Below are positions 62,434-63,341 of a stretch of 64,000 nt of DNA, piece after piece. Numbering within the stretch: the stretch's first letter is position 1; each line of letters opens with the position of its first letter. Source of the DNA: a virus. Lineage: Duplodnaviria; Caudoviricetes. The DNA lies in IMG/VR virus record IMGVR_UViG_3300028805_000043; one strand, given 5' to 3'. The position numbers and the translations under genes were made by a program. Under the pieces are notes generated by a model. That model searched no databases, was not told the DNA's origin, and saw nothing but the letters and a program-made list of their open reading frames with translations.

Positions 62434-62439
62434 AACTTG

Positions 62440-62513
62440 TACCTTCGGTGGGATTCGAACCCACGCTCCTATGCTTAAGAGGCATCAGCTTTAACCAACT
62501 AAGCTACGAAGGC
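62440..62513 (-). tRNA. tRNA-Lys(CUU)
   Basis: Cloverleaf, loop CTCTTAA. Confidence 0.88.
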
Positions 62514-62521
62514 ATTTATTG

Positions 62522-62594
62522 TGCTCCCACCCGGATTCGAACCGAGACCTGACAGATTAAGAGTCTGCTACGCTACCATTAACGCCATGGAAGC
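62522..62594 (-). tRNA. tRNA-Lys(CUU)
   Basis: Cloverleaf, loop CTCTTAA. Confidence 0.88.
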
Positions 62595-62600
62595 AAATTG

Positions 62601-62677
62601 TAGGCCCGGTGGGATTCGAACCCACGTCGTCACAGATTAAAAGTCTGGTGCATATAAAACCACTCTGCCACAAGCCC
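62601..62677 (-). tRNA. tRNA-Lys(UUU)
   Basis: Cloverleaf, loop CTTTTAA. Confidence 0.85.
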
Positions 62678-62685
62678 ATAAACTG

Positions 62686-62759
62686 TGCTCTCACTGGGAC
62701 TCGAACCCAGGCCCCTCAGCTTAAAAGGCTGCAGCTCTAACCAACTGAGCTATGAGAGC
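62686..62759 (-). tRNA. tRNA-Lys(UUU)
   Basis: Cloverleaf, loop CTTTTAA. Confidence 0.88.
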
Positions 62760-62765
62760 AAAAGG

Positions 62766-62840
62766 TACCCCCACTCGGATTCGAACCGAGACCCCTCTGT
62801 TTAAAAGACAGCAGCTCTAACCAATTGGAGCTATGGAGGC
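62766..62840 (-). tRNA. tRNA-Lys(UUU)
   Basis: Cloverleaf, loop CTTTTAA. Confidence 0.88.
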
Positions 62841-62975
62841 ATGCATTTCTAAATTCTAAAATCTTTAGTTTTGATTTTGATTTTACGTGCATGCTTCTTA
62901 TTGGTTAAAACTATGTAAATACCAATTGCTCTAAGGAAACATACACAACTAACGTTTTCGTTTAAGTTGTTTCAT
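62836..62975 (-). promoter_or_regulatory. Second amber-containing leader ORF (MKQLKRKR*LCMFP*SNWYLHSFNQ*) plus stem masking the tRNA-Lys 5' end
   Basis: ATG 62975; TAG 62949-62951 and 62931-62933; TAA 62898-62900; 62888-62897 pairs 9/10 with 62836-62845. Confidence 0.5.
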
Positions 62976-63005
62976 ATGCTTATTAAATTTATTTGTTTAT
63001 AATTG

Positions 63006-63080
63006 CAGGCCCTGAAAGACTCGAACTCTCATCGTGCAGATTTGGAGGCTGCCGTTTTCACTCAATTAAACTAAGGACCC
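63006..63080 (-). tRNA. tRNA-Trp(CCA), atypical D loop
   Basis: Loop CTCCAAA, G73; D loop lacks GG. Confidence 0.75.
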
Positions 63081-63341
63081 ATATTATGTTCCTCAGTTAT
63101 ATTTAAAATTAAACTAAGGACCCATATTAATTAAAAGTAAAATTCCGGACGCCAATATTATTGCTTTCCCTATTATAAGTATCAGTCCTGTGGAACATAA
63201 TGTCTTACGAGATTACCAACCTCTACCAGGAAATTGGCCGATGAAAGTCTTAACTTCAATGAGTTTCTACTTCTAGATACCACCTTCAGGAATGCCTTGA
63301 TATGCCGCAGCTCCCTGCAATAATACCAACATTTTACTTTG

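Follow-up and report, generated by a model that had tools for sequence, protein, structure and literature searches.

A conserved Lys-codon leader that may place a phage tRNA-Lys gene under a ribosome-read folding lock

The window, the whole stretch of 64,000 nucleotides analysed here, comes from a virus record of 199.7 kb (IMG/VR record IMGVR_UViG_3300028805_000043), which has a GC content of 27%, an estimated completeness of about 70% and a T4-type portal. This phage genome carries 60 tRNA genes, all on one strand, inside 19 kb. It uses genetic code 11, with TAG as a rare but true stop that ends one of the 133 long ORFs, and recoding of TAG was rejected. The gene starts of the phage are A-rich, with a Shine-Dalgarno motif in none of 167, and a lone tRNA-Lys gene (61281–61354) closely resembles the Bacteroidaceae tRNA-Lys arm; the host is therefore probably a Bacteroidota bacterium. 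ARAGORN did not recognise a canonical tRNA-Arg in the set of 60 genes (G000:C1:89931-109055) of this record, which is only about 70% complete, and several tRNA-Arg genes are present in the related loci L009, L095 and L097; these observations bear on the invariant CGA codon of the leader described below. A tRNA-Lys(UUU)-like gene at 60429–60565 on the minus strand carries about 61 additional nt between its D arm and its anticodon arm.

In front of a block of five tRNA-Lys genes on the minus strand lies a short leader ORF (Table 1). Its full frame starts with the ATG at 62975 and reads MKQLKRKR, TAG (62951–62949), LCMFP, TAG (62933–62931), SNWYLHSFNQ and TAA (62900–62898). The original prediction had drawn attention to the Lys-rich beginning of this frame and to a hairpin that includes its start. 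Both features were confirmed: codons 2, 5 and 7 of MKQLKRKR are AAA, and the start sits in a hairpin of −12.4 kcal/mol at 62981–62937. Just two of the 433 minus-strand ATGs in the 21-kb array are followed by at least three Lys within the first seven codons. Scored with a matrix built on 167 of the phage's own starts, the start context (6.1) is at the 99th percentile among all ATGs, the median real start scoring 4.5. No further strong-start, codon-matched mini-ORF was found in the array of this genome beyond the Lys leader and a second leader at 57824. Judging from these sequence features, the leader ORF is probably translated.

Table 1. Features of the leader and the adjoining tRNA-Lys genes in the window.
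Feature	Position	Strand	Remarks
Putative sensor mini-ORF, MKQLKRKR-TAG	62949..62975	(-)	core ATG AAA (xx AAA) CGA AAA Cxx stop
A-rich initiation region without Shine-Dalgarno motif	62976..62999	(-)	start-context score 6.1
Hairpin 1 (1:2), start region with segment 2	62937..62981	(-)	−3.5 to −13.8 kcal/mol across homologues
Segment 2, GTGTATGTTTC, predicted anti-lock strand, would lie under a ribosome at the stop	62936..62946	(-)	11/11 with segment 3
Inner hairpin TTGGT/ACCAA, stacked within the 2:3 helix	62901..62925	(-)	96.5% of cells paired
Segment 3, GAAGCATGCAC, predicted switching strand	62887..62897	(-)	pairs with segment 2 or the tRNA junction
Near-invariant A-rich motif AAATCAAAA, start of the lock loop	62875..62883	(-)	alignment of homologues
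Segment 4, leader −5..−1 and tRNA +1..+5, across the RNase P site	62836..62845	(-)	3:4 lock helix
tRNA-Lys(UUU), putatively locked	62766..62840	(-)	U31-A39 as in T5 tRNA-Lys; G27.A43 mismatch
Four more tRNA-Lys (2 UUU, 2 CUU), same block	62439..62759	(-)	not directly paired by the leader

The element has 34 distinct homologues in T4-like rumen phages, with leader identities of 64–100% and 19 clusters at 85%; to judge from the record names, the relatives seem to be mostly of rumen metagenomic origin. Its location before tRNA-Lys holds throughout these relatives, as all 34 directly precede a tRNA-Lys(UUU) gene (34/34, including L058, in which the truncated tRNA was placed by hand). The first loci were gathered through an unrelated protein encoded at 57243–57698, and their number was raised to 34 by pattern scans and contig look-ups. 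Loci found via this protein share a syntenic array, and the element is present in all eight of the IMG/VR loci that extend as far as the Lys block. It is also present in L095 and L097/L098, which were likewise found via an unrelated neighbouring protein. The tRNA located 5′ of the element differs (Asp, Trp, Tyr, Val, Pro, Asn or CUA). The gene at this position is exchanged freely between relatives, and in the window a tRNA-Trp(CCA) gene (63005–63080) replaces the tRNA-Asp(GTC) of most of them.

The element is single-copy in each phage record, and searching six of the records with its covariance model revealed no further copy. In L102 and L103 the Lys block and the element are both missing; the L100/L104/L105 lineage has kept the Lys pair and lacks the Lys leader. 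Directly before tRNA-Lys(UUU), this lineage has another stem-rich element, GTTGGAATT ... AATTCCAAC with a T-run (L100:3180-3392, L104:4800-5011 and L105:3470-3684). The covariance model had no match in 101 Bacteroidaceae genomes, no relative of the spacer was found among the cultured phages of INPHARED, and exact window patterns had no match in IMG/VR. Pattern matches in two Bacteroidales MAGs of GTDB (two of five hits) lie inside coding genes and were rejected as chance. A T4-type late promoter, TATAAATA, is located upstream in only 11 of the 34 homologues and is absent from the window; a late promoter belonging to the leader was accordingly rejected. By sequence comparison, the element is a real, conserved cis element.

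Only the peptide MK(xxK)RKx-stop (62975–62949) is conserved. Among the first 32 sequences, the mini-ORF has eight codons in 23, five in seven and 15 in one, L082, which carries a 30-nt insertion. Indels between the ATG and the stop preserve the frame (5, 8 or 15 codons), and 1-nt indels occur solely after the stop. The stop is located 1–3 nt ahead of segment 2 in 32 of the 34 homologues (21 TAG and 11 TAA) and just behind it in the remaining two, and the last AAA is separated from segment 2 by 11–12 nt in 30/32. The Lys codons of the mini-ORF are AAA throughout, matching the UUU anticodon, a pattern that is tempered by the genome-wide use of AAA for 78% of Lys codons. The sequence AAACGAAAAC, CGA included, is nucleotide-invariant without any synonymous change, which a binding site could equally explain. 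The invariant CGA at codon 6 is a rare codon (87 of 1225 Arg codons) within the range of ON positions of the model described below, and slow Arg decoding there may tune or share the signal. Codon 8 is variable (R, H, Q or P).

The original prediction had also proposed that GAAGCATGCA (62897–62888), directly after the TAA, pairs at 9/10 positions with TGCATGCCTC (62845–62836), which includes the first five bases of the tRNA-Lys(UUU) gene (62840–62766). This pairing stands. In the homologues, the pairs +2 to −3 of the 3:4 helix are standard in 34/34, with only C or U at −3, and those at −4 and −5 are standard in 28/34. What had been missed is a competing helix between segments 2 and 3, which pair at 11/11 positions around the inner hairpin in 34/34 homologues, both segments being fixed by the search pattern in 32 of these sequences. 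The 2:3 helix has a single compensatory change, C-G to U-A, in L095, a locus found without the search pattern, and the inner hairpin likewise has one compensatory change, G-C to A-U, in L068 and L074. Hairpin 1 changes register among the homologues, while the ATG, the frame and the stop position stay. A search pattern that left segments 2–4 free returned just five loci, all of them already known, and few diverged copies were therefore available for covariation. Covariation on 3:4 was not above that of shuffles (42–52/500); segment 3 has two partners and so cannot vary freely. The junction pairing in the window is the best among the 60 tRNAs, yet it was reached by 4/200 shuffles and is modest by itself. 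In 29 of 32 homologues, the lock duplex is stronger than all 59 control junctions.

Control of transcription, another output considered in the original prediction, loses its terminator-based form, as there is no U-tract terminator at the leader. No terminator-like site was found in 62841–63004, and there is none between the ORF and the tRNA; the 3:4 helix runs into the tRNA, with 3–5 T within the next 10 nt. Searches of Rfam, both at the gathering threshold and at E≤5, matched only tRNAs and nothing in the spacer.

We modelled the folding of the window precursor with an imposed ribosome footprint, using five lengths of downstream cover (11–15 nt). With the ribosome on A-site codons 2–7, the probability of the acceptor stem was 0.79–0.98, and it fell to at most 0.01 for a ribosome at the stop and to 0.01 when no ribosome was imposed. 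In the OFF model, the unpaired probability of the tRNA 5′ leader was 0.00. Codon 8 was already OFF at covers of at least 12 nt, which fits both its variability and the fixed distance between the last AAA and segment 2; when the cover was extended to 16 nt, the ribosome at the last AAA yielded an acceptor probability of only about 0.5. Destruction of segment 3 in silico resulted in a constantly ON state and that of segment 2 in a constantly OFF state. The compensatory double mutant was always ON, because 3:4 is destroyed as well, and is hence uninformative.

For the homologues, the full precursor at equilibrium was OFF in 32/32 with the ribosome at the stop and in 29/32 without a ribosome. Stalling flipped only 13–14 of the 32 to ON, with a median 2:3 probability of about 0.23, and co-transcriptional trapping or the tertiary stability of the tRNA must therefore be assumed. 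When the RNA ended before segment 4, the 2:3 probability exceeded 0.5 in 34/34 homologues with a stalled ribosome and in 0–4/34 with a ribosome at the stop. The 2:3 helix formed in 34/34 of these shorter RNAs without a ribosome as well, which makes the untranslated state ambiguous. The modelling suggests that the switch probably works kinetically, during transcription.

We consider it very likely that the leader is translated and senses Lys, whatever its output may be, and likely that the first tRNA-Lys(UUU) of the block is under a folding lock read by the ribosome. According to the folding model, the locked tRNA would probably fold and mature only upon ribosome stalling from a shortage of tRNA-Lys. 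When tRNA-Lys is plentiful, the ribosome would reach the stop and cover segment 2; segment 3 would then pair with positions −5 to +5 of the tRNA, by which the acceptor stem would be opened and the RNase P site buried (OFF). Stalling of the ribosome at any one of codons 2–7 would leave segment 2 free to form the 2:3 helix, and the tRNA would fold with a free leader (ON). The change from one state to the other would come after the last AAA and before the variable spacer codon. A locked precursor would fail to mature and would be degraded. The trigger might be a loss of charged tRNA-Lys(UUU), either via a host anticodon nuclease or by lysine starvation, and the tRNA so released would be a non-U39 variant held in reserve. 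Of the earlier proposal, the conserved AAA-rich upstream ORF acting on the folding or processing of the tRNA is retained, with the 2:3 switch helix to be added; its extension to the tRNA-Lys block applies to the first gene, which is paired, and not to the other four, which are not directly locked.

It is unlikely that the same Lys sensor has the whole five-tRNA block as its output, the OFF fold leading, for instance at the A-rich loop, to Rho-dependent termination or to decay by nucleases. Behind segment 3, the loop sequence is indeed poor in G, with C in excess (35 G and 85 C in 680 nt), it contains the near-invariant motif, and the genes downstream of the first tRNA-Lys are likewise tRNA-Lys. 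However, the lock helix is specific in covering the RNase P junction of a single tRNA, an intrinsic terminator is absent, the loop is reduced to 27 nt before the tRNA in L069, and the Val, Leu and Asp tRNAs that come next would be co-regulated.

It is also quite unlikely that the element is untranslated and sets the timing of tRNA processing through its structure or by binding a protein, with the ORF as a by-product of hairpin constraints. Such an element would account for the absence of synonymous changes in AAACGAAAAC and for the position of the TAG within the stem of hairpin 1. It is contradicted by the retention of the ATG, the frame and the stop position while hairpin 1 varies over the range given in Table 1, by the use of only TAG or TAA as the stop in 32/34, by frame-preserving indels that are confined to the ORF and by the strong start context.

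We regard as very improbable a trans-acting minigene, for which lambda bar provides a precedent and which would tie up the tRNA-Lys of the host as peptidyl-tRNA, with the phage providing a supply of its own. A very short ORF that opens with ATG AAA behind a strong start is what such a minigene would look like, but the invariant 2:3 and 3:4 helices and the fixed 11–12 nt spacing would be left unexplained.

The original prediction had offered amber read-through as a second signal, and a sensor of this kind coupled to the CUA tRNA of the phage now has very little probability. In its favour, the array includes a CUA tRNA, the stop is TAG in 21/32 Lys leaders although TAG closes so few long ORFs, and double read-through in the window ends exactly at segment 3. 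However, the genome uses code 11, the stop is TAA in 11/32 homologues, the length of the frame with TAG read scatters over 5–69 codons, only 3/34 end at segment 3, and in 7/32 the frame behind the stop is shifted. Judging from the footprint, a ribosome that had moved on to the second TAG would still cover segment 2. Because TAG and TAA alternate and the frame behind the stop is not kept, amber read-through was rejected as the signal of the Lys leader; neither an invariant TAG nor a conserved read-through frame is present.

The similarity to the leader at 57824, which had been described as a mirror image, also proved superficial, as the two stops behave differently across relatives. The 57824 leader, MKQFW-TAG-xxxxGFP-TAA (57783–57824, minus strand), precedes a 151-aa gene of unassigned function, for whose product 78 homologues and no Pfam family were found. 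In 15/15 distinct copies of this leader, the TAG is retained together with a read-through frame that ends in a TAA at codon 14; codons 8–10 are variable. Since these features are kept there and scattered in the Lys leader, the comparison marks the 57824 leader, adjoining the CUA tRNA, as a genuine candidate for amber read-through, which the Lys leader is not. The shared 'FP' is not a conserved peptide and most likely goes back to a GTTTC/GTTTTCC stretch, which is complementary to the start region and, in the Lys leader, also to segment 3.

Chance features of an AT-rich spacer are scarcely credible: the junction pairing alone, with 60 tRNAs tested and a palindromic GCATGC, could be so explained, but conservation of the 34 sequences down to the lowest identity, while the adjacent spacer sequence was reshuffled, refutes this explanation.

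Returning to the folding lock on the first tRNA-Lys, we compared the 31-39 pair of the tRNA-Lys copies. The first tRNA-Lys lacks U39 in 32/34 loci (C31-G39 in 29 and U31-A39 in three), and the later UUU copies have U39 in 27/30 (A31-U39 in 26). In 24 of the 26 loci with both copies, the first is without and the later with U39, and the reverse was never found; these counts come from related loci and are not independent. By our own count, tRNA-Lys(UUU) of Bacteroidaceae has U39 in 46/54 genomes. In L048, L049, L063 and L087, the first tRNA-Lys has C33 in place of U33 (loop CCTTTAA). According to two reports, a U39-to-A change in E. coli tRNA-Lys abolishes cleavage by PARIS AriB, and the T5 tRNA-Lys rescues infection under PARIS (PMC12409363, PMC11464382). 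The 31-39 contrast points toward tRNA-Lys nucleases, and a nuclease-evading role of the putatively locked tRNA is a lead, not a result. We tentatively propose an inducible counter-defence, in which destruction of host tRNA-Lys(UUU) would be sensed at AAA codons, whereupon a nuclease-resistant, non-U39 tRNA-Lys would fold and be cut by RNase P; this is possible, but we would not call it probable. If true, this would amount to an RNase P switch of natural origin that is controlled by translation and subject to negative feedback via its own product.

Two further elements adjoin tRNA genes of the window. A second conserved structured element at 61355–61435 (minus strand; GAGGTAAAATCTC ... GAGATTT) is located directly 5′ of the tRNA-Lys(UUU) at 61281–61354 and can pair with its positions −1 to −7. 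It is also present in L010, L013, L095 and L108, and it has no conserved ORF that we could see and no Rfam match. At 63064–63128 (minus strand), about 20 nt of the 5′ junction of tRNA-Trp(CCA) are repeated 45 nt upstream of it, with the complementary ACTGAGGAACATA in between. This copy is absent before the same tRNA-Trp in L066, L068 and L097, and represents either a local duplication or a private switch.

The proposed lock, if true, would represent a new output for ribosome-mediated attenuation, namely the maturation of a stable RNA instead of termination or translation. It also bears on why phages carry tRNAs, as release upon decoding failure argues for rescue from depletion and not for steady codon compensation. 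The device is about 210 nt long and could serve as a reporter of defence systems that cleave tRNA-Lys. Our literature search, covering mainly papers open without subscription, found no natural case of such control of a tRNA.

Leader-peptide attenuators are exemplified by trpL, hisL, thrL, pheL and pheM of pheST. Like trpL and hisL, the phage element has a short ORF with control codons and mutually exclusive 1:2, 2:3 and 3:4 pairings, in which a ribosome at the stop would cover segment 2 and a stalled one would free it. Unlike in these attenuators, the phage 3:4 helix is not a terminator, its 3′ strand is provided by the 5′ junction of the tRNA, and the regulated product would be the sensed tRNA itself. 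No amino-acid biosynthesis or synthetase operon follows the leader, tRNA-Lys being next in 34/34. With no terminator and another target, the element is not a member of the transcription attenuators. T-box riboswitches also respond to the availability of one particular charged tRNA, but they bind the tRNA directly, without translation, whereas the readout of the phage element would be based on translation; Rfam up to E=5 gave no T-box match in the spacer.

The theta ribozymes of gut phages, for which a role in tRNA maturation or regulation has been proposed, are likewise cis RNA elements beside phage tRNA genes (PMC10879173). They are, however, self-cleaving, HDV-like and without an ORF, and act on tRNA 3′ ends (PMC10879173), whereas the phage element is at the 5′ end. 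Among the ribozyme families included in Rfam, none matched the spacer up to E=5. Counter-defence by phage tRNAs has been put forward as a general hypothesis (PMC10264068). The putatively locked tRNA of the window, with A39, resembles the T5 tRNA-Lys(UUU) that faces PARIS AriB in its altered 31-39 pair; the portions of the T5 reports available to us describe no on-demand control, and most homologues have G39, unlike the A39 change examined for AriB there (PMC11464382, PMC12409363).

The output predicted here has its closest engineered parallel in a synthetic RNase P riboswitch, in which the 5′ leader of a pre-tRNA is either hidden or left accessible by a sequestor hairpin, which thereby controls maturation by RNase P (Ender et al. 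2021, PMC7897497). Masking of the leader blocks RNase P in such engineered switches (PMC7897497). Leader positions −1 to −4 are similarly covered by a helix in the phage element (−1 to −3 in 34/34 and −4 in 28/34). No small-molecule aptamer is present, as there is no Rfam match and the sensor region is an ORF. The synthetic switch is engineered, senses theophylline and leaves the tRNA body untouched (PMC7897497), whereas the phage element is natural, has the ribosome as its predicted sensor and would also invade the acceptor stem with its helix; if the lock operates as proposed, it would be the natural counterpart of the engineered RNase P switch.
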